Source: a virus
Direction: 5' to 3' (one strand)
Length of the DNA: 64,000 bases
Virus record (IMG/VR): IMGVR_UViG_3300034103_000446
Coordinates: 1-64,000 of that record
Shown: piece after piece, positions 9,166 to 41,200 of the stretch
How the letters are laid out: the number at the start of each line of letters is the position of its first letter
How positions within the stretch are numbered: position 1 is the first letter of the stretch
Translations under genes and position numbers: made by a program
Notes under the pieces: model-generated
What the model saw: only the letters and a program-made list of their open reading frames with translations
Databases searched by the model: none
What the model was told of the DNA's origin: nothing

Positions 9166-9447
9166 TCAAGACCATTTTAGTTCGTACAGTAATGCCTCAG
9201 TAGGATCTTCAAATGAGGGCAATGTAATTGGCACAAAGAAATCATCTATGGATTCTGATCCAATAAAGGTATAACGTCCTGATAGGGTATGAACGATCCA
9301 TTTAGCTGATTCTCTTGTTATTGCTGTGTTTGCTGTGACAAAATGTGGGGGCTTGAAGTCTAACTTTCTATTAACATGCCACACCTCAGGCTTTATTTCG
9401 ATGATAGAATGGACACTCAATTGATTAGGATCCTTTTTTGATAGCAT
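9166..9447 (-). CDS. Hypothetical phage protein
   Basis: 93 aa; ends LLYELKWS. Confidence 0.55.
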   Translation of the reverse strand: MLSKKDPNQLSVHSIIEIKPEVWHVNRKLDFKPPHFVTANTAITRESAKWIVHTLSGRYTFIGSESIDDFFVPITLPSFEDPTEALLYELKWS

Positions 9448-9667
9448 ACAACATTTCTACCTTACTTATTGCATCATTGAGTGTAGGATCACTGTCTGCC
9501 ATGAACACGGCTTCTTTTAATTTAAACCACCTAGCAGATAGTTCTCCTTCTTTTTTGTGCACCGGGTCAACCCAATGAAGGTGTCGATCAGTCTCGCCCA
9601 TTTTACGAGCATACACTGTTTTACCTCCATCGGGTGATTCGAAAATTAACTTTTCACTTGTCATCAT
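9425..9667 (-). CDS. Hypothetical phage protein
   Basis: Probable start MMTSEKLIFESPDGGKTVYAR, overlapping the stop of the VWA gene. Confidence 0.55.
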   Translation of the reverse strand: MMTSEKLIFESPDGGKTVYARKMGETDRHLHWVDPVHKKEGELSARWFKLKEAVFMADSDPTLNDAISKVEMLYAIKKGS

Positions 9668-16040: not shown

Positions 16041-16048
16041 TATTTATA
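16041..16048 (-). promoter_or_regulatory. T4 late promoter TATAAATA
   Basis: Exact consensus a few nt upstream of the ATG at 16033. Confidence 0.55.
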
Positions 16049-25700: not shown

Positions 25701-28700
25701 TGTGTACCAAACTGATAGATATAGGGAGGGTCATTTGGATTTGGTTTCCAACTAAAGTCAAACTGACTTACATCTATTTTGCTCGGTACATCCCATCCAG
25801 TAAGGTCGGTAGCAAGTGTTGCCTTCACATCATTGACATACTTTATCTTTTCAGCATAAGGACTTGAACGATATTCAATCGTAGGCATCACTTCTGCAGG
25901 ATACTGTGTGTTACCAAACACATAGATGAATTCACCGTCAGTGTCATCAGGATGCCATGACCAATCAAACGATGCAACTGATAAGTTGTTTAATACATTA
26001 AATTTACTCTTAGTAGGTAATTTCTTTGATGTGATAACACGAGTATCAATGTACTTGACTGGTGCGCTTCTTTTTGCGCCCGGAGTAACATACCGAGGTC
26101 CGCCTGTCTTCTGCCACTGTGTACCGAACTGATAGATATACGGATCGTCTTCTGCATAAGGGTGCCATGAGAAATCGAAATCAGATTCATCAATGTCAAC
26201 CGGAACTTCCCAGTTAGTTTTGTTAGGCAACGCTTTTGCACTAGGTGAATCCATGTACTTAGTTGCAATTGCGCCATCCATCTTGTATACAGGTCCACCA
26301 CTCAATGCCCATTGAGTAGCAAAATGATAGTTGTACGGAGGGCTAGTACTGTCAGGATGCCAGCTAAAGTCAAAATCAGTTACATCAATGTTCTCAGGTA
26401 ATGTCCACTTGTCATGATCCGGCAATGCTTTTACTTTTTGTGTGGTGACATACTTGACTTCGGTGGCATCGGGAACGATATATCGAGGTCCACCTGTCTT
26501 CTGCCATTGTGTACTGAATTCGTATATGAACGCAGGATCTTTTGGATTGGGTTTCCAACTAAAGTCAAAGCCAGTTGTATCTACACTAGCAGGCACTTCC
26601 CAGTTAGTCATATCAACATCAAGTACAGCAATAACATCAGACACATATTTGATTTGTTTTGCACCCGGAACTTTGTATTCTACAGTAGGCATTATCTCAG
26701 CAGGATGCTGAGTGTTGCCGAACACATAGATATATGGCTCATCGGTTTCATCCGGATGCCACGACCAATCAAACTCTTTAATCTTATAGTTATTGAGTAT
26801 TGCAAAGTTTTTCTTATTCGGTAATCTTTTAGATTTTAAAATACGAGTATCTATATACTTTACAGGGCTAGAAGGAATAACGCCCGGTGTTACATACTTT
26901 GGTCCGCCTGTCTTCTGCCACTGTGTACCGAACTGATAGATGTAGGGCTGATCTTCTACATACGGATGCCATGAGAAATCAAAGTCACTAACATCAACAT
27001 GTTCAGGTACTTCCCAATTGTCTTTGTTCTCCAACGCAATAGCACTTGGTTCTTCCAAGTACTTAGTTTCAACAGCGCCGGGTACAGTGTATATCGGTCC
27101 ACCTGTCAATGCCCATTGAGTAGCAAAGTGATATATGTATGCAGGACTTGTATCATCTGGATGCCAACTAAAATCAAATCCAGTCACATCAATATGAGTA
27201 GGAATAGTCCAGTTGTTCTGATTAGGTAACGCTTTTACTTTTTGAGTTGACACATACTTAACTTCATCAGCACCGGGTACTACGTATCTAGGTCCACCTG
27301 TTTTCTGCCATTGTGTACCGAACTGATAAATGAACGCAGGATCTTTTGGATTAGGTTTCCAGCTAAAGTCAAAATCTGTAGTGTCAATATCATCAGGTAC
27401 TTCCCAGTTAGTCATATCAACATCAAGTACCGCCATGATATTGTTGACATACTTGATTTGCTTTGCGCCAGGAACCACGTATTCTATGGTAGGCATTATT
27501 TCAGCAGGATGTTGATTATTACCAAATACATATATGTAGGGCTCATCAGTTTCATCTGGATGCCAGGTGAAGTCAAACTCTTTAATCTTGTAGTTGTTTA
27601 ATATTGCAAAGTTTTTCTTACTTGGCTTTCTAATAGCCTTTAAAATACGAGTGTCGATATACTTGACAGGACTAGAAGGAATCACTCCAGGTGTTATATA
27701 CTTCGGTCCACCTGTCTTTTGATGTTGTGTGCCGAACTGGTACACATATGGTTGATCTTCTACATATGGATGCCAGCTAAAGTCAAAACTATCTGCATCA
27801 ATCTCATTCGGTACTTTCCAGTTGTCTTTGTTCTCTAACGCAATAGCACTTGGTTCTTCTAAGTACTTTGTCTCGGATGCGCCTGGTACTGTGTACACCG
27901 GTCCGCCAGTCAATGCCCACTGAGTGGCAAAGTGATAGATATAGGGAGGACTTGTATCGTCAGGGTGCCAACTAAAATCAAAGTCAGTAGTATCTACGTA
28001 GCTAGGTACTGTCCAATTATCCTTAGTAGGTAGTGCGGTTACTTGATGTGTTGACACATACTTAACTTCATCGGCGTCAGGTACTACATAACGAGGGCCG
28101 CCTGTCTTTTGATGCTGTGTGCCAAATTGATAAATGAATGCCGGGTCTTTGGGATTAGGTCTCCAACTGAAATCAAAGGTAGATGTATCTGTATTGTCAG
28201 GCACTTCCCAGTTAGTCATATCAACGTCAAGTACAGCAATAACATCAGACACATACTTTATCTGTGTTGCACCAGGTACTACGTACTCAATAGTAGGCAT
28301 AATCTCGGCTGGATGCTGGTTATTACCGAATACATATATGTACGGCTCATCTGTGTCATCTGGATGCCATGACCAATCAAAATCTTTGATTTTGTAATTG
28401 TTTAATATTGCAAAATTCTTCTTGCTAGGTTTTCTGATAGATCGTATGATACGAGTATCAATATACTTAACTGGACTAGAAGGCAGTGATCCAGGGGTTA
28501 AATATCTAGGACCACCTGTCTTTTGATGTTGAGTACCAAACTGATAGATGTAGGGCTGATCTTCTACATATGGATGCCATGAGAAATCAAATGCATCACT
28601 GTCTATATAAGATGGAATTTCCCAATTGTCTTTATTTGGTAATGCGATAGCACTAGGCTCATCTAAGTATTTTGTTTCAACAGCATCAGGACAAGTATAT

Positions 28701-30949
28701 ATCGGTCCACCTGTTAATGCCCACTGAGTAGCAAAGTGATAGATATACGGCGGGCTTGTTCTGTCTGGATGCCATGAGAAATCAAAACCAGTCACATCAC
28801 AATTAACGGGAATAGTCCAGTTACTGTCTGAAACTAATGCTTTTACTTTTTGTGAGTCAACATACTTAACTTCAAATGCGTCCTGCACAATATAACGAGG
28901 ACCGCCTGTTTTCTGCCATTGAGTACCAAACTCATATATAAATGCCGGCTCTTTTGGATTGGGTTTCCAACTAAAGTCAAAACCATCACAATCAATATCG
29001 TCAGGTACTTCCCAGTTAGTCATATCAACATCTAAGGTTGCTATAACATTGTTAACATACTTGATTTGTTTTGCGCCGGGCATTGAGTATTCAATGGTAG
29101 GCATAATTTCTGCTGGATATAGATTGTTTCCAAATACATAGATATATGGCTCATCAGTATCATCTGGATGCCATGACCAATCAAAGTCTTTGATTTTGTA
29201 GTTGTTTAATATTGCAAAGTTTTTCTTATTTGATAGGCGCTTTGCTTTTATAACACGAGTGTCAATATATTTAATAGCACTATTCTTATGAATCCCGGGC
29301 GTTTTATAAATCGGGCCGCCTGTCTTCTGATGCTGTGTACCGAACTGATAAATGTAGGGCTCGTCCTGCGCATATGGATGCCATGAGAAATCAAATGCAT
29401 CACTGTCAATATAATCAGGTACTTCCCAATTGTCTTTATTTGGTAGTGCAATAGCACTTGGATGTTCAACATACTTAATTTCTGTTGCACCTTCCATGTG
29501 GTATATAGGGCCACCAGTTAATGCCCATTGGGTAGCAAAATGATATGTGTATGATGGACTAGTGCTATCAGGATGCCAACTAAAATCAAAGCCAGTTACA
29601 TCACAATTAGTAGGAATAGTCCATCCGTCGGTATTGGCCAATGCTTTGACTTTTTGAAATTCTATGTACTTAACTTCCGTTGCACCTTCGACTACATAAC
29701 GAGGTCCACCTGTTTTCTGCCATTGAGTGCCAAACTCGTATATAAATGCAGGGTCTGCTGGGCTAGGTTCCCAACTAAAATCAAAGCCAGTCGTGTCTAC
29801 ATTAGCAGGCACTTCCCAATTGTCCATGCATGGTTTGCGCTTTGATCTAGCTTCCATGAACTTGTATTCTGTAGCACCTTCTACTACATACTGAATACTA
29901 ACTTTATCTTCAGGCTTGTTCCATTGATTACCCCATGCATAAATGTATGGAGGGGCAGTTGGATTAGGTACCCAACTATAATCAATGCTGTCAGCTTTCT
30001 CTAAATGCTCAAACTTTTCTGCATGGGCGCTTAACTTAGCTTTCATATCATGCAGGTATTTTCTTTCAGTAGCATTTGGCATGTGATACTCAATTGTCGG
30101 CATCACTCCGGCTTCGTATTGCTCATTACCAAATACATATATGAAGTCAGGTTCTCTAGGATCAGGTCTCCAGCAGAAATCAAAAGTTGTTTTATCTACA
30201 TCATGTATGATATCCCACTGATCCCATTCAGGCAACACCGGAACAAGTTCATTCATGTATTTCTTTTCAGTTGCTCCCGGTACATGATATTCTAGTGTTG
30301 CTTTCAGCTTACCATCTACATATTTGTTACCCCATACATATATGAATGGAGGATCCATTGGATCAGGTCTCCAACTCATATCCCATCGGATCCTGTCTAC
30401 TTTTTGAACCTCAACGATGCTATTCCAATTAGGCAATAACTCTACTATAGTGTTCATGTATTTTATATCAGTTGCTCCTGGCACGTGATATTCTAAACAG
30501 GTGCTTAATTCTGCAGGTGCATACTTAGAACCCCATCTATAAATGAATGGAGGGTCTGTTGGATCAGGATGCCAACTAAAGTCCCACTTTTCTACGTTGA
30601 TGTTTTCTAGTATCTTCCAATTGTCAGATACTATGTTCTTTCTTTTGAGAGGCTCAACATCACACCGATACACAATAACATCACTCTTGTTATTTGCGCA
30701 CAGCCACGTGCCGCTATCTTTTTGATGGAGACTAGGCCACACATTGTTGTGATCTTCTGCCCAAACATCACTGTCAGGTAAAAACTCAAAATCAAAATCC
30801 CAATCAAAGTTAGTATAGTCACAGAATTCGTTGATGATCCAAAAGTGTTCTGTTGTTGCTTTTTTTCTAGCGTCTACTAAATTTTTAGCAGGTTGTTCTT
30901 TTGGATGGACATTCGGCTTAGTGCCGAAATAAAAAACATCTCTTAGCAT
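22796..30949 (-). CDS. Giant (2717 aa) tandem-repeat protein with C-terminal GT-A-like domain
   Basis: ~30 repeats of FDFSWHP..PYIY.FG; the C-terminal domain is homologous to 55306..56259. Confidence 0.85.
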   Translation of the reverse strand: MLRDVFYFGTKPNVHPKEQPAKNLVDARKKATTEHFWIINEFCDYTNFDWDFDFEFLPDSDVWAEDHNNVWPSLHQKDSGTWLCANNKSDVIVYRCDVEPLKRKNIVSDNWKILENINVEKWDFSWHPDPTDPPFIYRWGSKYAPAELSTCLEYHVPGATDIKYMNTIVELLPNWNSIVEVQKVDRIRWDMSWRPDPMDPPFIYVWGNKYVDGKLKATLEYHVPGATEKKYMNELVPVLPEWDQWDIIHDVDKTTFDFCWRPDPREPDFIYVFGNEQYEAGVMPTIEYHMPNATERKYLHDMKAKLSAHAEKFEHLEKADSIDYSWVPNPTAPPYIYAWGNQWNKPEDKVSIQYVVEGATEYKFMEARSKRKPCMDNWEVPANVDTTGFDFSWEPSPADPAFIYEFGTQWQKTGGPRYVVEGATEVKYIEFQKVKALANTDGWTIPTNCDVTGFDFSWHPDSTSPSYTYHFATQWALTGGPIYHMEGATEIKYVEHPSAIALPNKDNWEVPDYIDSDAFDFSWHPYAQDEPYIYQFGTQHQKTGGPIYKTPGIHKNSAIKYIDTRVIKAKRLSNKKNFAILNNYKIKDFDWSWHPDDTDEPYIYVFGNNLYPAEIMPTIEYSMPGAKQIKYVNNVIATLDVDMTNWEVPDDIDCDGFDFSWKPNPKEPAFIYEFGTQWQKTGGPRYIVQDAFEVKYVDSQKVKALVSDSNWTIPVNCDVTGFDFSWHPDRTSPPYIYHFATQWALTGGPIYTCPDAVETKYLDEPSAIALPNKDNWEIPSYIDSDAFDFSWHPYVEDQPYIYQFGTQHQKTGGPRYLTPGSLPSSPVKYIDTRIIRSIRKPSKKNFAILNNYKIKDFDWSWHPDDTDEPYIYVFGNNQHPAEIMPTIEYVVPGATQIKYVSDVIAVLDVDMTNWEVPDNTDTSTFDFSWRPNPKDPAFIYQFGTQHQKTGGPRYVVPDADEVKYVSTHQVTALPTKDNWTVPSYVDTTDFDFSWHPDDTSPPYIYHFATQWALTGGPVYTVPGASETKYLEEPSAIALENKDNWKVPNEIDADSFDFSWHPYVEDQPYVYQFGTQHQKTGGPKYITPGVIPSSPVKYIDTRILKAIRKPSKKNFAILNNYKIKEFDFTWHPDETDEPYIYVFGNNQHPAEIMPTIEYVVPGAKQIKYVNNIMAVLDVDMTNWEVPDDIDTTDFDFSWKPNPKDPAFIYQFGTQWQKTGGPRYVVPGADEVKYVSTQKVKALPNQNNWTIPTHIDVTGFDFSWHPDDTSPAYIYHFATQWALTGGPIYTVPGAVETKYLEEPSAIALENKDNWEVPEHVDVSDFDFSWHPYVEDQPYIYQFGTQWQKTGGPKYVTPGVIPSSPVKYIDTRILKSKRLPNKKNFAILNNYKIKEFDWSWHPDETDEPYIYVFGNTQHPAEIMPTVEYKVPGAKQIKYVSDVIAVLDVDMTNWEVPASVDTTGFDFSWKPNPKDPAFIYEFSTQWQKTGGPRYIVPDATEVKYVTTQKVKALPDHDKWTLPENIDVTDFDFSWHPDSTSPPYNYHFATQWALSGGPVYKMDGAIATKYMDSPSAKALPNKTNWEVPVDIDESDFDFSWHPYAEDDPYIYQFGTQWQKTGGPRYVTPGAKRSAPVKYIDTRVITSKKLPTKSKFNVLNNLSVASFDWSWHPDDTDGEFIYVFGNTQYPAEVMPTIEYRSSPYAEKIKYVNDVKATLATDLTGWDVPSKIDVSQFDFSWKPNPNDPPYIYQFGTQHQKTGGPKYTVSGATEVKYVEESTAKSVASKKHWFVPPSINSSVFDFSWHPDDTDELFIYQFGTQWQKTGGPRYVPEGATSDTPVKYCSDIKSIHLKDKKNFTTLIEHDIKDFDYSWHPDDTEKPYIYRFGNKQYSAEIMPTIEYKVPGAVQTKYVTDIVAILSPNRKNWVVPKNIQAESFDFSWIPNPNDPPYIYQFGTQHQKTNGPRYEVFGATDIKYVDDIRAKRKEDKTNWVIPNGVAVNDFDFSWHPDELAPPYVYQFGTMVDDKDGPKYVTPGHTGEIVYKLRITKPYENELATSIPDQVVVPEYYIETTLEDLINQHSSEVFWALNKNIDYTGFDFDWRPEVINVAWESDYVHVFGSPDSVTTHTYFVNARSYLDGKKDLKFVEDASLNEGYLSRLFIKPDMFFVDRGNPESAHRYEELKIKFGNIQKTRYLNSWVDTINRCINRSTTELCWILNSELDYTDFDFNYYPNPWQMKMVHVFGTQWSHWGTTFIVNRDTFSADTKYIKIIEHLSNLNFIKDRTAKATNVLYDVYYIDHGNTPNLPLANVVPYDTDYLTTFKNIISKLPEKKEHYIWIASTVCDYESFDFTYICDPFAREQLHVFPSDKQKFGDTFLVNVNKLRELIKDMESLKDYDKINFNQHQRTKRLAAPVIVSDFDSHVATVMQDFDFPYATFVTSDNKDIVVVEEEPMNLWDIESKNILITSTGGTRIVVPKEAKQYVETQLYDYPYIKTASRLAKSNPLDIVFLSNGEACADENYEHLLKATKGLPNRIVRVDGVNGRVEAYHAAAEASNTPWMFTVFAKLKVNTKFDFNWQPDRLQIPKHYMFLAKNPVNGLIYGHQGMIAYNKQMTLDNLGYGLDFTLDSPHETIELLSGIATYNIDEWSTWRTAFREVIKLKKEDSEISNSRLEVWLTKATGEFAQSSLDGAKDGIDYYNEVDGKTDKLKLSYEWAWLRERFNK
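25810..29830 (-). repeat. Five coding super-repeats of 804 bp (268 aa), each made of four ~67-aa subunits
   Basis: The anchor attgcaaa (NFAIL) lies at 26799, 27603, 28407 and 29211, exactly 804 bp apart; block ends are approximate. Confidence 0.9.
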
Positions 30950-32428
30950 TTATGATATCACTTTAACATTGTACAATTTTTCGAATCTATCGGCATCAAG
31001 TCTATCATTGACCATTGGCTCACCTCTGATATTAAGGGAGGTATTTAACAGTATAGGGCATCCAGTCAAGACATACCACTTTTCGAGTAGTTCTCTGACT
31101 CCGCTTCCATCTTTCGGCACAGTTTGAACACGACTAGTCCCGTCATGATGAACGATAGCAGGAAATAAGTCAGGATGCCTGCAACGAGCGATGACTTGCA
31201 TATACCTACTGTCACTCCAATTACGAGGCATGTCAAAATAATTATGAACATGCTCCTCCAAAATAATGGGCGCAAATGGTCTGAATTTTTGTCTGCGTTT
31301 AATTTCATTTACAGTATCCTTTATTGTATCACCTCTGGGGTCTGCAAGCAATGACCTATTACCCAATGCACGTGGACCGAACTCTGCACGACCTGAGGCT
31401 ACACCTACTATTTTAGTCTTAACTAGTTCGTCAATGATACGATTACTGGGATAATTGCCTGGAATGTCATGCCCTAAGAAAGCATCTACCCAGTTCAACT
31501 TCTTACCGTAGCCCAACGCAGCAGCACCTAAACTAGAACCACAGTCACCTGGATTAGGTACTATCCACATATCATTGAAGTAGTCACCTAAGTTTCTATT
31601 TGCTAGACAGTTAAGTGCGACTCCGCCTCCATATACTAAGTTGCGACTCTTGCCTAACATACGGGCTTTTGCCATGACGGTGTTAATTAGATATTCTACT
31701 AATGCCTGGGCACTGGCGGCAACGTCCATTTCATTAGCGCCTTCTAAAAAGTTTTCAGGGACACCAATGTGTAGGTTTTCTTTGAAATCTATTTTGGTGC
31801 TATTTTCTAACAACTTAGATTCAATGGTATTAAAATGTATAGGTTTACCGTACGCAGCCATACCCATTAGAATGTATTCTTCATCTAGTGGACGTAGACC
31901 AACGTGCTGAGTCATTGCACTATAATATAAACCAATACTGTGTGGATATTTTTTAGTCCAAAGTTTCTTGTATTGGGCATAGCCATTTTCATCGTACCAA
32001 GCATCCCATATAGAGATACAATCGATCTCACCGATAGCATCAATTACTACAACCGTAGCATCATTGTATGGACTTGTTTGAAAGCCGGCAGCGGCATGAC
32101 TTAAATGATGATTGTGTGTAACGACTTTTGGGTTGTTAAACACATCGAGAATAGATTTACCTATACGCATTTTAGCGGTACGTAAATCTAATTTTTGTCC
32201 TGCTCGTAATTGTCGTAATGCAGTCATCCAAGGACGTTCATAATAATGAATTTCACATTCATCAGTTAGAGTCTTGGCTGCGTCTATTGCCAATCCAGAG
32301 CATAATTCAGCGTCATGCTTTTGCTTGCTATAACGCTCACTATGACCTGCAAATAAAATGTTGCCATTCGAATCCACAACAGAGATACCGGCGTCATGGA
32401 AGCCGTTGCTTATTCCTACGTAGTTCAT
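30950..32428 (-). CDS. Carbamoyltransferase (NodU/CmcH/TobZ family)
   Basis: HDAG, ERYSK.KHD, HHLSHAA, GGVALNC, EFGPRALGNRS, FRPFAP, LLNTSLN. Confidence 0.95.
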   Translation of the reverse strand: MNYVGISNGFHDAGISVVDSNGNILFAGHSERYSKQKHDAELCSGLAIDAAKTLTDECEIHYYERPWMTALRQLRAGQKLDLRTAKMRIGKSILDVFNNPKVVTHNHHLSHAAAGFQTSPYNDATVVVIDAIGEIDCISIWDAWYDENGYAQYKKLWTKKYPHSIGLYYSAMTQHVGLRPLDEEYILMGMAAYGKPIHFNTIESKLLENSTKIDFKENLHIGVPENFLEGANEMDVAASAQALVEYLINTVMAKARMLGKSRNLVYGGGVALNCLANRNLGDYFNDMWIVPNPGDCGSSLGAAALGYGKKLNWVDAFLGHDIPGNYPSNRIIDELVKTKIVGVASGRAEFGPRALGNRSLLADPRGDTIKDTVNEIKRRQKFRPFAPIILEEHVHNYFDMPRNWSDSRYMQVIARCRHPDLFPAIVHHDGTSRVQTVPKDGSGVRELLEKWYVLTGCPILLNTSLNIRGEPMVNDRLDADRFEKLYNVKVIS

Positions 32429-32433
32429 TCAAA

Positions 32434-32532
32434 TCACTTGTAGATAAATGGGTCACGTTTACGTAGTTCTTTGATGCGTTTGCGATATTTGTATTCTTTG
32501 ACTAGGTTTTTGAAAAATCTGATTATAAACAT
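32434..32532 (-). CDS. 32-aa basic peptide directly upstream of the carbamoyltransferase
   Basis: Not in the track: MFIIRFFKNLVKEYKYRKRIKELRKRDPFIYK; SD aaggag. Confidence 0.65.
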   Translation of the reverse strand: MFIIRFFKNLVKEYKYRKRIKELRKRDPFIYK

Positions 32533-32562
32533 AGGAGCTCCTTAAATTCCTATGTATTTATA
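32530..32562 (-). promoter_or_regulatory. T4 late promoter TATAAATA plus a start-codon-sequestering hairpin
   Basis: TATAAATA at 32562-32555 followed by CATAGGA-atttaaggagc-TCCTATG. Confidence 0.6.
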
Positions 32563-32564
32563 AC

Positions 32565-34340
32565 TCAATACCTGTTAGGGCATTTTTCTAACAACGTTTT
32601 TCTGTTGTGTTCTAATATTGGCAACATTCTATTGTACATAATCTTGAGGTCGCTTATCGACATATTGTTGATTTGATCTATAATATCAAATATTGCAAAG
32701 AGCCTGGATTCATGATCTTCCAATGCATCATATGACTCATCCCAAAAATCACCAAACGTTTCAAAGCCTTGCTCTTTAAGATAATGCAATGTATGAGGAG
32801 GTGCTACTAACACAAACGGCTTCATATAGAACATAGGTCTATACACTTTTTCGCTATAGTTAGCAGTAGGCTGTGCGAACCTAGATTCATTTACAATGTC
32901 AACAAAAACATCTGCATATGCTGTTTTCAAACGGTCTTTATTGTCACCAAAACTCTGAGTTTTGTGATCAAATATCATTCCTGTAGGAAACATCTTTTTG
33001 AAATAACTATGAGAAATTAATGTGTGCTCTTTGACTTTTAAATCAATGTTCCACGGTGATTTAGAATTCAACTTGTTAAATCCAGTAATCATCTTTTGGA
33101 ATGTATTTGGATTCTTCTGTAACCAATGATGTATACTGTACCAGGGTTCTACACTGACTACACTCATGTCAGATTTAAAGTACCAGGTTAGATACGAATC
33201 TATTTCATAATTAGCCAAATACGCTGATACCAATTGACGATGTGGTGCATATCTCCAATTCATATTGATAAACTTTTTAGTAAAATCGCCGGTCTTAGTG
33301 TCGTCTAGTTGTTCAAATTCATTTATATCAAAAAACTTAACAAACAAATCATCTGCCTCAAGACGCATTTTTGATCTGTAATTTATGTAAAACTTTTGAA
33401 TATTATAGTCGCATGACTTGACAGTAACATTCTTTAATCCATTGTTATCAATGTATTTCTCGATGCTGTCTAGTTCAACTGCCCTTAAATCAAATTTACG
33501 CTGTACGTGGTCATAGTGAAACTCACTATAAAATAGCAATGAATGAACAGTACCATGAGGAGGATATTGCTGAGTATCGGTTGACCTGTAAGAACATAAC
33601 GGTTCATACAGATAAATCTCAACACCTGTTTCATTTAATTTTTGTACTGTCTCTGGATCGTGCTTGATGTTTTCTAATTCAGTAATTTCCCTATTATACA
33701 TGTAGATGTAGTAGGGTGTGGTTTTTTGCATAGCCTTATGCATATTAGCCATTATAGGTGCATCTAATGATTCTTTCTTAGTTTTTAGATCAGGAATGTT
33801 ATACCAATGCAAGCTAGAAATATCATCAAACGTAATCTTCGTACCTGTAATCTGTAATGTGTATCTGTCTTCTATGCCGATGTTACTAGCGGCATGTGAA
33901 ACATCACTGTCCCACATAAAATAGTCTCCGGCGACCCAATTAACCACTCCCACACCATCAATTTCTAAGTAATGTCCAGGTTGCCAATCTTCTAACATTA
34001 CCAATACTCTGACAACATTTTCATATTTTGCATCAAATAATTTCATGTATGTTTGAAAATGATCTACGTGTGTTGGCATAATTTCTAACTGTTGCATTTT
34101 GTAGAAATTATATGTCATGTTCTTTAGATCAAAAATGTTGTTAAATTGGTTGACCCACTCTGGCATAGGATTACGGTTATCATACATCGAGCCAGAAAAA
34201 CTTTTTACATAGTCATAACCTTTAGCTTTCCATTCTTCAAGTTCGCTATCCATTAATGGTTGTTTTACATATTCAAACTTCTTTACATCGTCAGTGTTCC
34301 AAAATCTACTTATGTGTCCTCTTGTCCATTTATTTGCCAT
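32565..34340 (-). CDS. Fusion: cupin/2OG-oxygenase-like N-terminus plus GT10-like domain
   Basis: N-terminal PTHVDH...SHAASN...RYTLQITG; C-terminal IVNES...SEKVYRP..MKPFVL...GFETF. Confidence 0.65.
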   Translation of the reverse strand: MANKWTRGHISRFWNTDDVKKFEYVKQPLMDSELEEWKAKGYDYVKSFSGSMYDNRNPMPEWVNQFNNIFDLKNMTYNFYKMQQLEIMPTHVDHFQTYMKLFDAKYENVVRVLVMLEDWQPGHYLEIDGVGVVNWVAGDYFMWDSDVSHAASNIGIEDRYTLQITGTKITFDDISSLHWYNIPDLKTKKESLDAPIMANMHKAMQKTTPYYIYMYNREITELENIKHDPETVQKLNETGVEIYLYEPLCSYRSTDTQQYPPHGTVHSLLFYSEFHYDHVQRKFDLRAVELDSIEKYIDNNGLKNVTVKSCDYNIQKFYINYRSKMRLEADDLFVKFFDINEFEQLDDTKTGDFTKKFINMNWRYAPHRQLVSAYLANYEIDSYLTWYFKSDMSVVSVEPWYSIHHWLQKNPNTFQKMITGFNKLNSKSPWNIDLKVKEHTLISHSYFKKMFPTGMIFDHKTQSFGDNKDRLKTAYADVFVDIVNESRFAQPTANYSEKVYRPMFYMKPFVLVAPPHTLHYLKEQGFETFGDFWDESYDALEDHESRLFAIFDIIDQINNMSISDLKIMYNRMLPILEHNRKTLLEKCPNRY

Positions 34341-35316
34341 TGTGATTTCTCTCTATGTCTAATGTCACGCAATGAAAGCAGCCTCCTAATGTACGTGCAT
34401 GGCGCATTGGCATCATTTTTACATCAACTTTATGCTTTTCTAATTCTATTCGTAACTGTTCTTGGTGTTCTTCTACTACTGCAAGGTTAGGATTGACGCT
34501 GAATAAGTTCACGCTAACCCATGTACTAGCATTACAGTAGCCAGGGTAATGACCTATGTCTACTGGTTCGGGTGCCCAAATAACATCCCATGATTGTAGT
34601 GGCTTGGGTAGTTGGTCTACTGACTTTATACGTGCCGGGTTCAATAACATCAGACCCTCACGCAATAACGCAATCGTGCTATCTAAGTGCATATAACTAT
34701 ACACACCTTCAATAGTATGTACTTTCTTGTCAGGATGTGCCATTTGCAATAGTTCAGCACCACTTTTGTTTCCGCTGTTACTTACAAGATAAAACAAATC
34801 ATCATTGCTTCTAAGTACATTGGCTGCATCGAACGCAGGTTCTGTCTCAGTCAGTGCTAATATGTCAGGATTACCCAAGCAACCACTGTTGTATAAACTA
34901 CTATCTCTAGGGAATCTAGGAACTAATACATCACCATACTGTGATAGTGTAGGCAACAATGCCTTGTATTCATCTTGTCTACTACGCAATGGCATAGGTG
35001 TAGCAATGATTGTGTCATCATGTATTAATACACTGTCACGTGGGCAATAGTTATAGTAACTAGGCACTACCGACTTATCCGGGCGATGTACTTTTACATG
35101 ACATGACTCTAAGAACTTACTGAACAAGTCTAAGTCTTCGTTAGCTTCGTCAATTACTTGTTTGGGGTATAACCCTGCTGATGGGATGTTATAGAACTTC
35201 TGTACATCAGCATAGTTAACCATACGCAAACTAGTATCTGCTATTGGAACCCGGGCATCATCTGCAATGCCCACTATAACTGATTTTAACGGATCCCATT
35301 CGTTCTTACTTAACAT
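34330..35316 (-). CDS. Amidinotransferase (glycine / inosamine-phosphate StrB-like)
   Basis: NEWDPLKSVIVG, CPRD, FDAAN, HLDS and GGCFHCVTLD (catalytic Cys). Confidence 0.92.
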   Translation of the reverse strand: MLSKNEWDPLKSVIVGIADDARVPIADTSLRMVNYADVQKFYNIPSAGLYPKQVIDEANEDLDLFSKFLESCHVKVHRPDKSVVPSYYNYCPRDSVLIHDDTIIATPMPLRSRQDEYKALLPTLSQYGDVLVPRFPRDSSLYNSGCLGNPDILALTETEPAFDAANVLRSNDDLFYLVSNSGNKSGAELLQMAHPDKKVHTIEGVYSYMHLDSTIALLREGLMLLNPARIKSVDQLPKPLQSWDVIWAPEPVDIGHYPGYCNASTWVSVNLFSVNPNLAVVEEHQEQLRIELEKHKVDVKMMPMRHARTLGGCFHCVTLDIERNHNGK

Positions 35317-35896
35317 TAAATACTTTCATCGTTGATATATCGGGGTAGTCTTTATACGACCATTGTTTAGGTTCTGATTCTTTTGCTTGTTTGAGTTTAT
35401 TTAAACCTAGCTGTGCTGTCTCTGGGGTCATATAGTAATGGTAACCCAATGTATCTACATCTTGTTCAGCCCAGAGTACATCAGGCACTCTGCCGTCATA
35501 ACTCATTTTCTTTAATTGGATTGCCGCTTCACTGTCATCGGTGAGTATCATACCACCACGACCCAAATTCAAATGCTTGCGATATTGAAACGACAAGCAC
35601 ATAAATGCGTCAGGTATATACGAATCACGCTTCCAATACACTGCGGCATCAATAATATTTGTACCACCTATACGATAATAGTCTTTCCAATATGTATCAG
35701 TAAACTTCCAATCTATAGCAAGCTTCTCAAATGTCATAGGAACACTGAGATATGTATGTTTAGGAGTAGTTGCAGTTTTTACATCTTGTAGTCGCAAACA
35801 TAGCTCAATAGCATGTGTACAGCAATCAGTAGCAATAGCATACTTAGCCCCATAGAAGTCTGCTATCTGTTTTTCTAGCTCACTGACTTCTTTCAT
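35306..35896 (-). CDS. Short DegT-like PLP-dependent aminotransferase
   Basis: CTHAIELCL, IIDAA and SFQYRKHL...GGMILTDD; only 196 aa. Confidence 0.75.
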   Translation of the reverse strand: MKEVSELEKQIADFYGAKYAIATDCCTHAIELCLRLQDVKTATTPKHTYLSVPMTFEKLAIDWKFTDTYWKDYYRIGGTNIIDAAVYWKRDSYIPDAFMCLSFQYRKHLNLGRGGMILTDDSEAAIQLKKMSYDGRVPDVLWAEQDVDTLGYHYYMTPETAQLGLNKLKQAKESEPKQWSYKDYPDISTMKVFNVK

Positions 35897-38151
35897 TTCG
35901 GCTTTCGTTTAATACTGTCGATTGAAATAGTCTGTGCCTCTTTAGCAAAGTCAAGTGCAGACATTGCTTCTTTCTCGGGAATAACTTCTCGTGATGTGTT
36001 AGATACTTCAACTTCAAAGTCTTTGTAGTTGCCCCAGTTACCATACCCAATATAATGATAGTCAAATGTAAAGTCAACTGTCTTATTCAACTCAGTCTCT
36101 TCATCCAACAGATCACTAAAGTCTTGACCATCACGACCTTCAGCATCACTCCATGTAGGCTTTGCAAGCTTACGGGCACGTAGTGCAGTGTTACTCATCA
36201 TACGTGAATAGTCTTGTGCATAGAACGGACCTTTGCGACCTAGAGGAGGACGTTCACGATCATCAAAAGGGTTATCGATCTGTTCAAACTTCATATCAAA
36301 GTCTGCTTCCCACTTGCCACTGTCACTGATCTTAAACTTGTATACAGCATTAAACATGCCTGGACCAAACTGTTGACCAAACTCTTTCAAGTCAATCTCA
36401 GGGTTGTATAGTATTTCTGCTTCGTATCCGCCACGACATTTCCATAGCATACGCAAGAAGGGCCACATCTCATTTACCAATGCATCAGCAAACGGATTAA
36501 TGTTTGGCTTAATGATGTTGTAATCAAACTTTTCATACTCAATCTCTCTTGCCATGTCACTATGGTTGAGTTTGATCTTGTAGTGTTCTTTCTCTAATGC
36601 ATGACGCACAGGATAGCTGATAGGTACATCGGTTACTCCACGAAAGAAGTCAGCAAACATGTGCCATGTTTTGACACGAATCATCAAGTGTGTGCCGCCA
36701 AATGTAAAGTCATTGCGTATCCAGTGACCCTGATACTTGTGCCAGCTGATGTTAAACTTGTGGGGATGTTGCCCTACAATAGTCTCAGGACCCATACCGT
36801 AACCAACACCTAAACCTGCATTGTTAATGTTATTGTTACGCATACGCCAGAAGAATGTCATAGTGTCACTGTAATCTTGATAGTCTTCTGTAGGGAACCC
36901 AACGATCCAGTTAGTGGCCGCCCAGATGCCTACTTTCTTACAGTCAATGAAGTTCTGCTCCATCTCAGCGATAGTAACACCTTTAGCCATGTCATCAAGT
37001 ACTTTCTGACTTCCGGATTCAACCCCAAAGTTAAACATGATAGCGCCGCCGGCTGCTAAGTCTTGTAAGTACTCTAAGTCCATACGACCATCACAACGGG
37101 CATATCCTGTCCACTTGACTTTTAAGTCTTTCTCTTTAAGAGCCAGGGCAAAGGCTCGTAGTTCTTTAGGATTACCATTGATTAACGAATCAATGAACCA
37201 GATAATGTCTGTGCCTTTATTATAGTACAGCCACTCAACTTCTGTAATCAAGTCAACACTTTGACGCTGACGATACTTCCAAAAGTGTGTTTCTTCACAG
37301 AATGTACATTTAGCTGTACAGCCGCGTGATATCTCACTGTTCACACCGTTAGGTAATTCATACTGGGAGAAATCAATACTCTCATAGTCGGGCATGGGCA
37401 AGCCGTTGATGTTGATACGCTGATCTTCTGGCTGTGTTAAATAGCGTGGATACTCTACTTCTATCTTGTCTTCTATTTCGTCAAGCATTACCAGTAGATT
37501 CTGTTCACCTTCTCCTACAACAACATAGTCATAGTATGGATGTGTTGCGAACCAACTCTTGTGTACGTTAGGTCCACCTACAGCAATCTTAATGTGAGGT
37601 GCTCTACGCTTGATTTCACGACACATCCACTTAGTAGGTTCTTCGCTAATGTAGTAAACGCTAAAGCCTACTACATCAGGATTCATTTCAATGATCTTAT
37701 CTACGGCCGGGCTTAATATCTCAGGGCCTAACAATGGGTGAATATCATTCATGTAAGTATCACCCATCCAATGCCAAGAACTAGAAGGATCCCATAGTCT
37801 AAATGGAATTCTTTGTTTAGGCCACCAGTCTTTCTTAAATGCGTTATATGCTTTAACATTCAAGTCTATGATGTGTGTCTCATAGCCCGAACTTTTAGCA
37901 ACACCGCTTAATCGTGCAAGACTAAACGGAGGCATATAAGGACTCCATTCAGGGCATAATACAAGAACCAACTTAGTGTTTCTTGTCTTGTAGTCAACGT
38001 ATACAGGAGTTAAGTTCTTTTGTACAGTTGGTTTAGCATAAGGTGCAATTGCTTCCATCATACTACGATGGCGTGCATCAGCAATGTCCTCTGTGGGGCG
38101 TTCCTTAGGCTTTAATTCGTCAACAGCCAATGATCTTAATGTGAAATCCAA
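35893..38151 (-). CDS. B12-binding radical SAM enzyme (class B methyltransferase-like)
   Basis: Cobalamin-domain GGP/GEGE motifs, SRGCTAKCTFC, GVESGS; TTG start with SD aggag. Confidence 0.9.
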   Translation of the reverse strand: MDFTLRSLAVDELKPKERPTEDIADARHRSMMEAIAPYAKPTVQKNLTPVYVDYKTRNTKLVLVLCPEWSPYMPPFSLARLSGVAKSSGYETHIIDLNVKAYNAFKKDWWPKQRIPFRLWDPSSSWHWMGDTYMNDIHPLLGPEILSPAVDKIIEMNPDVVGFSVYYISEEPTKWMCREIKRRAPHIKIAVGGPNVHKSWFATHPYYDYVVVGEGEQNLLVMLDEIEDKIEVEYPRYLTQPEDQRININGLPMPDYESIDFSQYELPNGVNSEISRGCTAKCTFCEETHFWKYRQRQSVDLITEVEWLYYNKGTDIIWFIDSLINGNPKELRAFALALKEKDLKVKWTGYARCDGRMDLEYLQDLAAGGAIMFNFGVESGSQKVLDDMAKGVTIAEMEQNFIDCKKVGIWAATNWIVGFPTEDYQDYSDTMTFFWRMRNNNINNAGLGVGYGMGPETIVGQHPHKFNISWHKYQGHWIRNDFTFGGTHLMIRVKTWHMFADFFRGVTDVPISYPVRHALEKEHYKIKLNHSDMAREIEYEKFDYNIIKPNINPFADALVNEMWPFLRMLWKCRGGYEAEILYNPEIDLKEFGQQFGPGMFNAVYKFKISDSGKWEADFDMKFEQIDNPFDDRERPPLGRKGPFYAQDYSRMMSNTALRARKLAKPTWSDAEGRDGQDFSDLLDEETELNKTVDFTFDYHYIGYGNWGNYKDFEVEVSNTSREVIPEKEAMSALDFAKEAQTISIDSIKRKPK

Positions 38152-38213: not shown

Positions 38214-41200
38214 TTAGACTTTAAAGTGATATATACCACAATTTGGATTTTCAACCATTGGGCAGAAGCCCATAAACTTTAATCCACCGCTGGCAGCCCA
38301 TGCAATATAATGTTCTTGATTACTACCAGTAGTAATAAAGATATCAGCACCCGTATTTAAGTATTTTTTGATATTAGCGTAAAAGTCTTGCAATGCTTCA
38401 TATCCTTCATCAACGATTAATCTGCAAGTGTTATCTACACAGTTTAAATGCTCAAGTGATTCAATAAATGCTTGTCTGTCACCACTGTGCGGTGGATTAG
38501 CTACTACCAAATCAAACTTCTCTGTAGTTGGTATTTGTGTAACTTCATTACACACATAGGCACTAATTTTATCTGCTACTTTGTTAGCTGTTGCATTAGC
38601 TAAACAAGATTTTATAGACGGGCTGTGCATGTCAACAAATGCCACTGAGTCTACTTTGTTTTTATCTAGCAAATCATATCCCAGTGGGCCAACTCCAGAG
38701 CACCATTCTAATGCACGACCATAATGTTCTTTTCCTATACGCTCTATTAACGAGTACAATTCCTCTTTAATTTCAAATCCACCACCGTCCATGTGTGTAG
38801 GGTATTCAAGTACAAATCCATTCTCGTATATGCGTGTTTGCTTAGACCAATCTAATTGATTAGGTGAAGATTCTAACGGAATTACTACGGGCTTAACAGT
38901 GTTTATATCTAAGTTAGGTTCTGGTATTGCAACACTAGGTATCACTACAGATAACGGTGCAGGTTGAATTACCGGCAGTTCAATTGGATATACAATTGGC
39001 TGAGGCTTTTCTTGCACAAATATTGGTTTAGCGGCGACTACGTTATTAAACAATTGCTGATAGTTCTTAGTAATTGTAAAATCTTTATTAGAGTGAAAAT
39101 GCTGTTGATTGAATTCAACTATTTCTTTTATTCCAGTTTGCCATACTTCCCAATCGCCGCCGGTGAAGTTATTCAATCGTTTGATTTCTTTAACAATAGC
39201 TTCAAAGCGTAAATCATCATTTTCAATAGTGTCATATGATTCGTCAATATATGGACTAAATGTTTTATACCCTTGCTCACGTAACACACGCAAGCAATAA
39301 GGTCTAGCCATTAATACAAACGGGTGATTTAGTGCAAAGCAACGATATGTTTTTTCAGTTAAGAACAGACTATCTTCTACAAAAGGACGATGCGCTTGAT
39401 CCGGACGATCCTTATCATAGAACAATGTTTCAGTGATTACACTGAAATAACTGTCTTTATAGTATTGCAAATCATCGGGTTGAATGTCCACTGGGTTATG
39501 TCTATCTTCAGTGATATTCAATCGCATAGGAAACATATCTGCATTCTGTCTAATTAATGGAAACTTTTGATCATGCAATAACGGAATCTTTTCTTTAAAA
39601 TCGGTATCGCCCTCAAAACTATACCAGGCCTTATCTACTAGACTCTCATGTAACATACGCTCCAACAATACCATACGATGTTCTCTATTAAGTTTGTTAA
39701 AGCAAGTAAAGTTTTTTCCACGGAATCTAACATCGTACCCACCGATATATTCATATCCCTGTGCATAAGTTGTAGTGATATAATTAAAGAAATGGCAGTT
39801 TAATAACGAAACACGCTTGTTCCAGCCGTTTTTGTCAATTAACTTTTCATACACTTTGTCAGCATCAATTACACCGGTCAATACAATTATGTCTTCTTCT
39901 GGAATAATGTCGTCAACAATGTTAGCAATACGCTGAATTTTGCTTTGTACATGCGGCATAAATGCTTCTGTGGCTGCAAAGAACAAGAACTTAGACTTGC
40001 CGTTCTTATGTGCAAGACGCATTTCTTTAACAATGTCTTGTGTAGGTCTACAAACAAACATTGTTTCAAAGTTAATTGTAGCATCAATTAAATGAATATT
40101 GTGCTCATATTCTTTAATGGCCGGAAACATCTCAAGTACTTGACGCATCATTGTTTCTGTAGTAGTAGACGGAACCTCATATTTATGTTTAGAACGAGTA
40201 TCACCGTAATGTATGATTTCACCACTGTGTTGTTGGCTAGTCATCTTGCGCCATGGATCAATAACTACAGCAGCAGGATCTTTGAACTGTAGACGTTCGA
40301 CCCAAGACTCCCAATATCCAATTAGAAACACATGAGTCCAGTCTTCACGCAGGTCATGATCCTCAGTATTTGGATCGTAGTAGTTTAAGTTGCCACCATG
40401 CTTTTCAATATTGTAACCTACTAACATACTTGCAGAACCGTTAATATAACTCACCCCCGGTTTGTATGCTTTACCAATGATGGTTACATTACGACCATTC
40501 TCTAGGCAACGTAGGGCCATGCGCTCGGCTTGTACTTCACGTGCGGCCATGATTGAATCAAACAAATCATAACCTAAGTCTAGTCTGTCTGCTAGATAGC
40601 GTAGTGCAATGTTATCTCTTGGGTGACATGCACCTGCATCTCCTAGTCCGGCTTTCATGTATGCCGGACCCATGATGCGATGTGTACTCTTAGCCAATGC
40701 TTGTGTAACTACATCTACGTTGATATTGCCATTGGTCTCTGCAACGTCTTGCACCATGTTGACAAGTGCTAGCTTAGTGCTGATAAATGTGTTGTAGAAG
40801 ATTTTGATAGACTCAGCTTCATCCCATGTGCCAACTTCATAGCGTGGCTCGTTCTGCATAAACACTTTATAAAAGTCAATTAATTCACTAGCATCACCAG
40901 TAAGGCTACCATCATCTGTGCCAATAATTACCATTTCTGGATTTACCATGTCCCATTTTACGGTGCCCATAGCAATAAGGTAAGGGTTGTAAATGAATCT
41001 TGCATTAGTGATACAAGGCTCTAGGATGCTACGAACTGTTCCGGGTAGCACTGTACTGATGAGGACAACTAATTGACTTTTAGTAACATGTTTATTGACC
41101 TCTTTTAAAATGTCAGTGACTATTGTATAGTCAAAATCTTTGTTTGGAAGATGGCTTGTTGGAGTTTCACCACCATAGATAGGATCATGTGGTGTGGGTG

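Follow-up and report, generated by a model that had tools for sequence, protein, structure and literature searches.

The amidinotransferase StrB1 (L-arginine:inosamine-phosphate amidinotransferase) acts after the DegT-family enzyme StsC in streptomycin (streptidine) biosynthesis. The phage locus described here resembles this system in that amination would precede amidination and a DegT-family enzyme is the neighbour of the amidinotransferase. StrB1 (PDB 1BWD) was the best solved relative of the phage enzyme over its full length, and the two share the same Asp-His-Cys triad. However, the phage enzyme has 328 aa compared with 348 aa and belongs to a phage clade of its own. The phage aminotransferase has a single domain, no cyclitol, kinase, or phosphatase genes lie alongside, and a glycosyltransferase is located within the unit.

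The Ugd/ArnA/ArnB system for UDP-4-amino-4-deoxy-L-arabinose (lipid A modification) likewise combines an NDP-sugar 6-dehydrogenase with a DegT-family aminotransferase. ArnB was among the top fold matches of the short phage aminotransferase (mini-DegT), and a counterpart of the locus in Bdellovibrio has the full order UGD-SDR-mini-DegT. In contrast to this system, the phage cassette has no adjacent SDR oxidase/decarboxylase but a 2OG oxygenase, adds an amidinotransferase after amination, and lacks a formyltransferase or ArnT. The phage carbamoyltransferase shares the Kae1-like and YrdC-like domains and the metal and adenylate motifs of TobZ, NovN, GdmN, NodU, and the cyanophage "Nol-like carbamoyltransferase" (phrog_1601); however, it is approximately 80-200 aa shorter than the solved enzymes, and it is preceded by a 32-aa ORF and followed by a giant repeat protein.

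ORF305-309 of the cultured Synechococcus phage S-SCSM2R (PQ898602) were labelled "antibiotic synthesis genes" on the basis of annotation alone (PMC12801897). This phage carries, among glycosyltransferases, a 195-aa "AHBA synthase" that is a mini-DegT, a 164-aa 2OG oxygenase, and an "inosamine amidinotransferase" (58% identity) in the same clade as the enzyme studied here. S-SCSM2R differs in being a T4-like marine cyanophage whose locus contains neither a B12-binding radical SAM enzyme (B12-rSAM) nor a carbamoyltransferase and whose oxygenase is not fused to a glycosyltransferase. The genomic context in the present phage gives no support to the antibiotic reading.

Gene content of the locus

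We analyzed a window of 64,000 nt from an IMG/VR virus record of 103 kb (approximately 29% complete) that represents a giant lake phage. The ORF list of the window revealed five tightly packed minus-strand ORFs at 30950-38151 (Table 1). Virion genes adjoin the glycan cluster and tail-fibre genes are among its neighbours; together with the source record, they bear out the phage origin assumed in the preliminary description. The enzyme names proposed there for all five genes were also correct, and Pfam, phmmer searches of the PDB, AlphaFold folds, and catalytic residues indicated that the genes are real and intact. Two amendments were required: the aminotransferase is half the usual length, and the 136-nt gap upstream of the carbamoyltransferase contains a TATAAATA motif followed by a conserved ORF of 32 aa.

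Table 1. Features of the locus and its flanks, with the basis of each assignment.
Feature	Position (nt)	Strand	Basis or remark
Giant repeat protein, 2717 aa	22796..30949	-	ORF; downstream partner of carbamoyltransferase
NodU/CmcH/TobZ-family carbamoyltransferase, 492 aa	30950..32428	-	Pfam
Conserved basic micro-ORF, 32 aa	32434..32532	-	AAGGAG ribosome-binding site; directly upstream of carbamoyltransferase
TATAAATA, T4-late-promoter-like motif	32555..32562	-	upstream of 32-aa ORF and carbamoyltransferase
2OG/Fe(II) oxygenase + GT-B glycosyltransferase fusion, 591 aa	32565-34340	-	AlphaFold model
GT-B-fold glycosyltransferase domain, fusion residues ~176-591	32568..33815	-	AlphaFold, Foldseek
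Small 2OG/Fe(II) oxygenase domain, fusion residues 1-168	33837..34340	-	motif and fold
StrB1-type L-arginine amidinotransferase, 328 aa	34330..35316	-	phmmer against PDB
Mini-DegT, single-domain PLP sugar aminotransferase homologue, 196 aa	35306..35896	-	PF01041, 2.4e-19
Class B (B12-binding) radical SAM enzyme, 752 aa	35893..38151	-	Pfam
NDP-sugar 6-dehydrogenase + GT-B-like domain + methyltransferase fusion, 1053 aa	38214..41375	-	Pfam, NCBIfam, HMM
Paralogous GT-B domains	20723-22799, 38217-41375, 41438-42511, 43277-45322, 49093-50430		profile HMM

The amidinotransferase had no Pfam match. A phmmer search of the PDB matched it to StrB1 (1bwd, E 5.8e-66, residues 4-324), HsvA (1.4e-36), GATM (3e-32), and SxtG (2.5e-29), and the triad Asp163, His210, and Cys316 was invariant in alignment A3. 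Relatives were found on at least 246 viral IMG/VR contigs and in 424 bacterial cases. In the tree, the enzyme grouped with other phage sequences in a clade of 48 members (SH-aLRT 95) whose nearest proteins are those of Bdellovibrio, not those of actinomycetes. Only 12 of 50,697 cultured phage records contained a relative, one of them close; the statement that amidinotransferases are unusual in phages thus holds for cultured phages but not for uncultured aquatic ones.

The mini-DegT consists of the large domain only, without the C-terminal small domain. Asp83 (IIDAA) and the PLP lysine Lys107 (SFQYRK) were invariant in 40 homologues, and the AlphaFold model (pLDDT 95) matched GDP-perosamine synthase, ArnB, WbpE, and DesI in Foldseek, with a TM score of approximately 0.75 when normalized to the query and 0.41 when normalized to the target. 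A length of 193-222 aa was maintained over approximately 60 loci, and relatives of approximately 196 aa form at least 8000 clusters in metagenomes.

The AlphaFold model of the 591-aa fusion (pLDDT 91) shows a 2OG oxygenase fold at the N terminus and a GT-B fold at the C terminus. The oxygenase domain carries His91-x-Asp93, His149, and Arg159, gave a weak Pfam match to Asp_Arg_Hydrox, and matched the folds of PiuC-like oxygenases, SnoN/SnoK, and prolyl hydroxylases in VIA-align (Z 12-14.5); many relatives encode it as a separate gene of approximately 165 aa. Foldseek matched the GT-B domain to trehalose-phosphate synthase, a chlorovirus glycosyltransferase, and glycogen synthase, and a profile HMM detected at least seven further copies of this family within the window.

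The B12-rSAM and the carbamoyltransferase are standard members of their families. The former contains B12-binding (6e-12, residues 150-217) and Radical_SAM (6.5e-18, residues 273-433) Pfam domains and the CxxxCxxC motif CTAKCTFC at residue 278; NCBIfam returned sub-threshold matches only (RiPP C-methylases, PhpK, and others), and its ESM Atlas neighbours were viral without exception. The enzyme is probably a methylase. The carbamoyltransferase exceeded the Pfam cut-offs for Carbam_trans_N (3e-36) and Carbam_trans_C (7e-48), matched NovN (3e-47), GdmN and TobZ (both approximately 1e-36), and phrog_1601 (4e-92), carries HHLSH...D and GPRALGNRS motifs, and was present on at least 595 viral contigs. 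A tblastn search revealed the 32-aa micro-ORF at 59-97% identity in dozens of related loci, where it ends at the carbamoyltransferase start. Only two copies of TATAAATA occur in the 64 kb, compared with 7.7 expected by chance, and both are intergenic and on the coding strand; the motif may act as a promoter. The 1053-aa fusion beside the B12-rSAM contains UDPG_MGDP_dh_N, the central domain, and MTS in Pfam, an NCBIfam NDP-sugar dehydrogenase match (2.4e-41), and a GT-B HMM match; it is the likely source of a uronic-acid precursor.

An optional cassette among backbone genes

Linkage was assessed in 27 non-redundant viral amidinotransferase loci, each with at least 6 kb of flanking sequence. At a distance of no more than 3 kb from the amidinotransferase, the oxygenase occurred in 25 of the 27 loci, the GT-B domain in 24, and the mini-DegT in 22; the last count backs the amination and subsequent amidination that had been proposed. 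A relative of the sugar dehydrogenase was found within 6 kb in 20/27. The most common order was DegT-AMT-oxygenase-GT-B, with the oxygenase and GT-B fused or separate. The B12-rSAM was present in 18 and the carbamoyltransferase in 13 of these loci.

The carbamoyltransferase was followed by the giant 2717-aa gene in 55 of 61 loci, whereas an amidinotransferase was found in only 13 of 68 carbamoyltransferase loci. In many relatives, the B12-rSAM, the carbamoyltransferase, and the giant gene are present but no cassette lies between them; the gap between the first two genes is 0.85-0.9 kb without the amidinotransferase and 3.1-6.3 kb with it. The mini-DegT, amidinotransferase, and oxygenase~GT-B therefore form a cassette that is an optional 3.4-kb insertion in a variable slot, and the B12-rSAM, micro-ORF, carbamoyltransferase, and giant gene form a backbone that is present with or without it.

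These results contradict the earlier view of five enzymes as one co-conserved set acting on a single molecule. Co-conservation in related phages holds for the mini-DegT, amidinotransferase, oxygenase, and GT-B, which travel together, but not for the carbamoyltransferase and B12-rSAM, which are inherited independently. A product that is guanidinylated, carbamoylated, and methylated at once finds no support, since the B12-rSAM and carbamoyltransferase often lie approximately 850 nt apart without a cassette between them. The region is best read as two kinds of genes, optional cassette and backbone, of one large phage glycan-synthesis cluster.

Possible products of the cassette

We favor, with a probability of roughly 0.55, the reading that the cassette makes one cationic guanidino sugar and transfers it within the large glycan cluster. 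The glycan unit, one of the two products originally suggested, is preferred because the cassette itself includes a glycosyltransferase and genes of this kind abound throughout the region. The Bdellovibrio chromosomal counterpart contains twitch-rSAMs, AMT, UGD, SDR, mini-DegT, and GT-B genes, with a polysaccharide lyase and a further UGD/SDR pair nearby; the amidinotransferase of Acidobacteriota and Burkholderiales lies near a full-length DegT and an SDR. Acceptors of the family seen among the PDB matches also include glycine, polyamines, and cyclitols, which counts against a guanidino sugar.

Because the closest folds of the oxygenase include protein prolyl hydroxylases, its substrate may be a protein and not a sugar. 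The oxygenase would then hydroxylate prolyl or lysyl residues of a protein, and the GT-B joined to it would glycosylate these residues once hydroxylated, as collagen-type hydroxylase-glycosyltransferase fusions do; the amidinotransferase and mini-DegT would act on something other than the transferred sugar, such as a free amine or the side chain of a protein. The physical fusion in this phage agrees with such a scheme, as do the many prolyl hydroxylases (P. putida P4H, PHD2, and chlorovirus collagen P4H) matched by the N-terminal domain at Z 11.7-13; however, the sugar-modifying 2OG enzymes SnoN and SnoK scored equally or higher (Z 11.8-13.5). Moreover, the oxygenase remains the neighbour of the amidinotransferase in loci whose GT-B lies apart or on the opposite strand (L039, L062, L072, and S-SCSM2R), which ties it to the amidinotransferase pathway and not to the glycosyltransferase, and the bacterial amidinotransferase associates with sugar aminotransferases and sugar dehydrogenases. 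We consider a protein target unlikely.

A guanidino group and a carbamoyl group occur together in bluensidine, and this precedent, along with StrB1 as the closest solved relative, speaks for a diffusible product resembling streptidine or bluensidine, either a cyclitol or an aminoglycoside-like small molecule, with added guanidino, carbamoyl, and C-methyl groups. The published label of the S-SCSM2R copies (PMC12801897) points the same way. Nevertheless, the cassette includes a glycosyltransferase and is surrounded by at least eight GT-B domains, and inheritance of the carbamoyltransferase and of the B12-rSAM does not follow that of the amidinotransferase. The cluster yielded no kinase, phosphatase, exporter, or resistance gene in Pfam scans, and 2-DOI synthase, inositol-phosphate (inositol-1-phosphate) synthase, and inositol dehydrogenase were not found in the 103-kb record; the record is a fragment covering approximately 29% of the genome, so the absence of a gene proves little. 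The cyclitol or small-molecule aminoglycoside of the preliminary description thus gained no support, and we regard such a product as very improbable. PLP enzymes, radical SAM enzymes, and GT-B glycosyltransferases also serve phage DNA hypermodification pathways, and the cassette could accordingly modify a DNA base with a guanidino sugar or an amine. However, the genome encodes a thymidylate synthase that passes the NCBIfam equivalog cut-off (342 bits vs 327) and lies next to DHFR, which indicates ordinary dTMP synthesis, and the analysis detected neither a hydroxymethylase nor a DNA-base kinase or transglycosylase. The many glycosyltransferase domains and NDP-sugar enzymes of the cluster, its adjoining tail-fibre genes, and the location of the Bdellovibrio counterpart among polysaccharide genes also make DNA modification the least probable of these alternatives.

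Proposed pathway

Synthesis of the guanidino sugar would begin with a nucleotide sugar, probably derived from the UDP-glucuronate of the adjacent dehydrogenase, that is converted to a keto sugar. The phages have the oxygenase and no SDR beside the cassette, whereas the Bdellovibrio clusters have an SDR and no copy of the small oxygenase; this complementarity, drawn from two bacterial loci, suggests that the small 2OG/Fe oxygenase may perform the keto-forming oxidation in phages. Alternatively, this step could fall to the cluster's radical SAM enzymes with an N-terminal twitch. The putative single-domain PLP enzyme would then transaminate the keto group to an amine, to which the StrB1-type enzyme would transfer the amidino group of L-arginine through a thio-intermediate at Cys316, yielding a guanidino group and ornithine. 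Finally, the GT-B domain would move the cationic sugar onto the growing glycan, and tailoring may precede or follow this transfer. The backbone genes would contribute tailoring to the same glycoconjugate as a whole but need not act on the guanidino sugar itself, and the final target would be a macromolecule of the virion or of the host surface.

Identities of the five adjoining gene products

The five ORFs of the interval, whose ends overlap or almost abut, lie within a long co-oriented gene run on a 103-kb IMG/VR virus record, with virion and tail genes immediately upstream. The preliminary description had labelled their products as a B12 radical SAM enzyme, a DegT-like aminotransferase, an amidinotransferase, a cupin-glycosyltransferase fusion, and a carbamoyltransferase, and all five enzyme labels were borne out. 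Pfam and NCBIfam directly confirmed three of them (the B12 radical SAM enzyme, the DegT-family protein, and the NodU/TobZ-type carbamoyltransferase), and PDB homology and predicted folds supported the other two. Near-identical DNA was present in many lake-water metagenomes; megablast of the 7.2-kb region returned no match among cultured phages, and no RNA run was listed among the public runs that contain the DNA. Scans for sigma-70 promoters and terminators yielded chance-level results.

Positions of the features discussed in the text
Feature	Position	Strand	Remarks
Five ORFs under study	30950-38151	-	
Giant gene (2717-aa repeat protein)	22796-30949	-	
Micro-ORF (32 aa, strongly basic, unannotated)	32434-32532	-	AAGGAG ribosome-binding site; directly 5' of the carbamoyltransferase gene
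TATAAATA, first copy	16041-16048	-	Intergenic, on the coding strand, just 5' of a gene
TATAAATA, second copy	32555-32562	-	Intergenic, on the coding strand, just 5' of a gene
Second amino-sugar module	3075-6509	-	
Thymidylate synthase	6765-7682		Adjoins the second amino-sugar module
DHFR	7667-8119		Adjoins the second amino-sugar module
Second B12 radical SAM enzyme	45319-47247	-	

Judged from its sequence, the 328-aa protein is clearly an amidinotransferase of the StrB1/GATM type. A PDB search matched residues 4-324 to StrB1 (1bwd, E 5.8e-66) and also retrieved HsvA (1.4e-36), GATM (3e-32), and SxtG (2.5e-29). Asp163 (FDAAN), His210 (MHLDST), and Cys316 (FHC) aligned with the StrB1 motifs and were invariant in 18 diverse phage homologues. 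Pfam, NCBIfam, and PHROGs returned no match except one PHROG of unknown function, and the open-access literature yielded no phage enzyme of this kind that had been characterised. IMG/VR yielded at least 246 contigs encoding relatives, which also made up 4143 protein clusters (E <= 1e-10), and 424 bacterial relatives showed 40-50% identity. Among 50,697 cultured phage records, a close copy occurred only in Synechococcus phage S-SCSM2R (58% identity); Campylobacter and Enterococcus phages carried distant relatives (23-25%). In a maximum-likelihood tree, the amidinotransferase fell into a clade of 48 viral sequences that included S-SCSM2R (SH-aLRT 95), with Bdellovibrio sp. HCB2-146 and a Pseudobdellovibrionaceae MAG as the nearest bacterial neighbours, and two further viral groups were placed elsewhere among bacterial sequences. 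Some viral loci (L025, L028, and L029) each carried two paralogues approximately 3.7 kb apart, with 62-65% identity to the window's protein and each with its own oxygenase or GT-B neighbours.

The aminotransferase comprises 196 aa, compared with approximately 370 (360-400) for the DegT/DnrJ/EryC1/StrS family, and is referred to here as mini-DegT. Its model (pLDDT 95) superposed on the large domain of GDP-perosamine synthase, ArnB, WbpE, and DesI, displaying the fold-type I large domain; it spanned only approximately 40% of the structural targets (target-normalised TM approximately 0.41) and did not have the two-domain DegT architecture with a C-terminal small domain. The PLP lysine Lys107 (SFQxK) and the pyridine-nitrogen aspartate Asp83 (IIDAA) were invariant. 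A length of 193-222 aa was retained in approximately 60 diverged viral loci, and the same length was observed in at least 8000 metagenomic protein clusters. We rejected the possibility of a pseudogene because of the conserved length, the invariant Lys and Asp, and the confidently predicted large-domain fold without a small domain. A 291-aa gene located between the oxygenase and amidinotransferase genes in marine T4-like loci was considered as a diverged mini-DegT and dismissed (hhalign probability 0.1%, no PDB match). Complex prediction for mini-DegT with the amidinotransferase, run without controls, scored 0.00, a value that bears on binding in neither direction.

The 591-aa fusion protein received nothing from Pfam, NCBIfam, or PHROGs, and a PDB sequence search produced only noise. 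Its predicted model (pLDDT 91) contains an N-terminal double-stranded beta-helix typical of 2OG/Fe(II) oxygenases, with Z scores of up to 14.5 against such enzymes and matches to PiuC-like enzymes, SnoN/SnoK, and prolyl hydroxylases. The motif His91-x-Asp93, His149, and the 2OG-binding Arg159 were retained in the consensus of alignment A1, and the ESM Atlas matched this domain to unnamed viral clusters only. Residues 176-591 are predicted to form alternating helices and strands in a Rossmann-like, two-domain GT-B arrangement, and Foldseek matched GT-B enzymes across these C-terminal 400 residues. The two domains were fused in the window phage and its close kin and were encoded by separate genes elsewhere.

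The 752-aa B12 radical SAM protein combines a B12-binding domain (PF02310, 45.9 bits) with a radical SAM core (PF04055, 65.9 bits) carrying CTAKCTFC (CxxxCxxC) at residue 278, which is the class B organisation. No characterised subfamily predictive of sugar C-methylation (GenK, Fom3, PhpK, and others) came near its NCBIfam cut-off (best 101 bits versus 282), and the ESM Atlas neighbours were unnamed and exclusively viral; we therefore did not adopt a GenK-like methylase reading, given the lack of a subfamily match. The second B12 radical SAM enzyme of the window matched the KedN5 family of methylcobalamin-dependent C-methyltransferases (1.3e-73, below cut-off), far better than any subfamily match of the 752-aa protein. 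The carbamoyltransferase scored 125.9 bits for Carbam_trans_N (cut-off 24) and 162.8 bits for Carbam_trans_C (cut-off 27). It comprises a Kae1-like N-domain and a YrdC-like C-domain of the NodU/CmcH/TobZ type with HHLSH...D and GPRALGNRS, and its best solved relatives were NovN (3e-47), GdmN, and TobZ.

An optional cassette within a conserved backbone

All window proteins were mapped onto 80 amidinotransferase loci, followed by profile HMMs, and partners were counted in 27 non-redundant loci with at least 6 kb of flank. The results revealed that the small oxygenase (25/27), GT-B (24/27), and mini-DegT (22/27) lay within 3 kb of the amidinotransferase gene, most commonly in the order DegT-amidinotransferase-oxygenase-GT-B. 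Within 6 kb, an NDP-sugar dehydrogenase occurred in 20 of the 27 loci, the B12 radical SAM gene in 18, and the carbamoyltransferase gene in 13.

The survey centred on the carbamoyltransferase, which occurred on at least 595 viral contigs, was decisive for separating the backbone from the cassette. The giant gene followed the carbamoyltransferase gene in 55 of 61 loci, and only 13 of 68 carbamoyltransferase loci contained an amidinotransferase or mini-DegT. The distance from the B12 radical SAM gene to the carbamoyltransferase gene was approximately 0.85-0.9 kb without the cassette and 3.1-6.3 kb with it. These linkage counts and the variable spacing indicate that the five genes are a composite, in which an optional 3.4-kb cassette occupies a variable slot of the backbone. 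The backbone consists of a dehydrogenase-GT-methyltransferase fusion, the B12 radical SAM enzyme, the micro-ORF, the carbamoyltransferase, and the giant protein; relative to it, the cassette has been either inserted or lost. The five-gene set proposed in the preliminary description thus held in part: the four cassette functions were inherited together with all catalytic motifs intact, whereas the B12 radical SAM enzyme and the carbamoyltransferase belong to the backbone.

In cassette-less relatives such as L196, a 255-aa gene of an unknown family (9154-9921, + strand) lay between the B12 radical SAM gene and the micro-ORF, which suggests that this slot is a hot spot for exchanging tailoring genes. 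The micro-ORF was 59-97% identical at the amino-acid level in dozens of related contigs, and it always ended where the carbamoyltransferase gene begins; L006/L182 instead have a copy that precedes mini-DegT. The T4-late-promoter-like motif TATAAATA occurred twice in 64 kb compared with 7.7 copies expected by chance, and this scarcity and placement fit T4-type late promoters with selection against stray copies. In marine T4-like contigs, a separate 597-aa carbamoyltransferase was encoded near the amidinotransferase; carbamoylation and amidination thus recur in the same glycan islands, although not as a fixed pair.

Counterparts and a proposed guanidino-sugar pathway

The S-SCSM2R locus encodes a 195-aa 'AHBA synthase', a radical SAM protein, a 164-aa 2OG oxygenase, and an 'inosamine amidinotransferase' among glycosyltransferases. 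These copies have been named 'antibiotic synthesis genes', an annotation made without experiments (PMC12801897). The same study reported a distant second 'glycine amidinotransferase' and a prolyl dihydroxylase-like protein (PQ898602, ORF266/269) in the purified virion proteome (PMC12801897); tblastn of S-SCSM2R with the window amidinotransferase found ORF309 as the only relative. Bdellovibrio sp. HCB2-146 (NZ_JBLEQP010000001.1, approximately 1.85-1.88 Mb; loci L083/L242) contains a homologous chromosomal cluster, which it shares with the Pseudobdellovibrionaceae MAG. Besides at least three N-terminal-twitch radical SAM proteins, this cluster encodes an amidinotransferase and a PP-loop ATPase, UGD and a short SDR, and a 222-aa mini-DegT with a GT-B protein of the family seen in the phage. 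It is bordered by housekeeping genes, and beyond it come a polysaccharide lyase gene, another UGD/SDR pair, and further radical SAM genes. In Acidobacteriota and Burkholderiales, the amidinotransferase gene had genes for a full-length DegT and for an SDR in its vicinity, and the contexts in all three groups argue for amino-sugar rather than cyclitol chemistry. The Bdellovibrio clusters contained the SDR and lacked the small oxygenase, whereas the phages exhibited the reverse. The window itself also carries a second amino-sugar module with an N-terminal-twitch radical SAM protein (NF033640, 1.5e-96), a full-length 354-aa DegT/PseC-like aminotransferase, and a dTDP-glucose-4,6-dehydratase-like SDR.

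We tentatively propose, with a probability of roughly 35%, that guanidino sugars, a cationic unit undescribed in glycoconjugates, are built into glycans by large aquatic phages as well as by some Bdellovibrio. The portable cassette would oxidise, aminate, amidinate, and transfer the sugar, with a new, minimal single-domain PLP aminotransferase and a 165-aa 2OG oxygenase in place of the SDR. In our favoured reading of the phage cassette, in which we place moderate confidence, the starting compound would be a nucleotide sugar, probably derived from UDP-glucuronate because of the conserved dehydrogenase. Once oxidation had produced a keto sugar, mini-DegT would install an amine, to which the StrB1-type enzyme would add an amidino group taken from L-arginine, and GT-B would carry out the transfer. 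The absence of the small domain would leave mini-DegT with a more open active site, so that tailoring after transfer to the polymer is possible. The weakest link is the oxidation, which is provisionally assigned to the small oxygenase because it accompanies the amidinotransferase more consistently than any other neighbour, because the sugar-acting 2OG enzymes SnoN and SnoK rank high in its structural comparisons, and because of its reciprocal distribution with the SDR.

The twitch radical SAM proteins of the cluster (NF033640) are alternative candidates for the keto-forming step, and the likeness of the oxygenase fold to prolyl hydroxylases also weighs against a sugar oxidant; a fusion that hydroxylates protein and glycosylates it is a possible but less probable reading. 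The aminoglycoside-like small molecule or cyclitol envisaged in the preliminary description was not supported. No 2-DOI synthase, inositol-phosphate synthase, or inositol dehydrogenase was found in the 103-kb record, estimated to represent approximately 29% of the genome, and the cyclitol-forming families PF01761, PF07994, and PF01408 had no match there with controls that responded. Pfam scans of the cluster revealed no kinase, phosphatase, or exporter, and at least eight GT-B domains are encoded in the window, making a diffusible product unlikely. A role in DNA hypermodification is likewise unlikely, since the bona fide thymidylate synthase adjoins DHFR and the setting resembles that of polysaccharide synthesis.

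Implications for phage glycans and enzymology

The enzyme families are all known. On the cassette and its minimal aminotransferase, the open-access literature offered only the S-SCSM2R annotation, and it described no glycan with the predicted guanidino sugar. For annotation, the carbamoyltransferase and the B12 radical SAM enzyme should not be taken as steps of one aminoglycoside-like pathway. The half-size aminotransferase family would be of interest to enzymology as a minimal PLP scaffold. Because cultured S-SCSM2R and cultured Bdellovibrio possess the module, the proposal is directly testable. If it is correct, the guanidino sugar would be a new glycan building block, permanently cationic and arginine-like, from viruses abundant in lakes and oceans, and could affect the sticking of virions to cells, the evasion of recognition, or the alteration of host surfaces.
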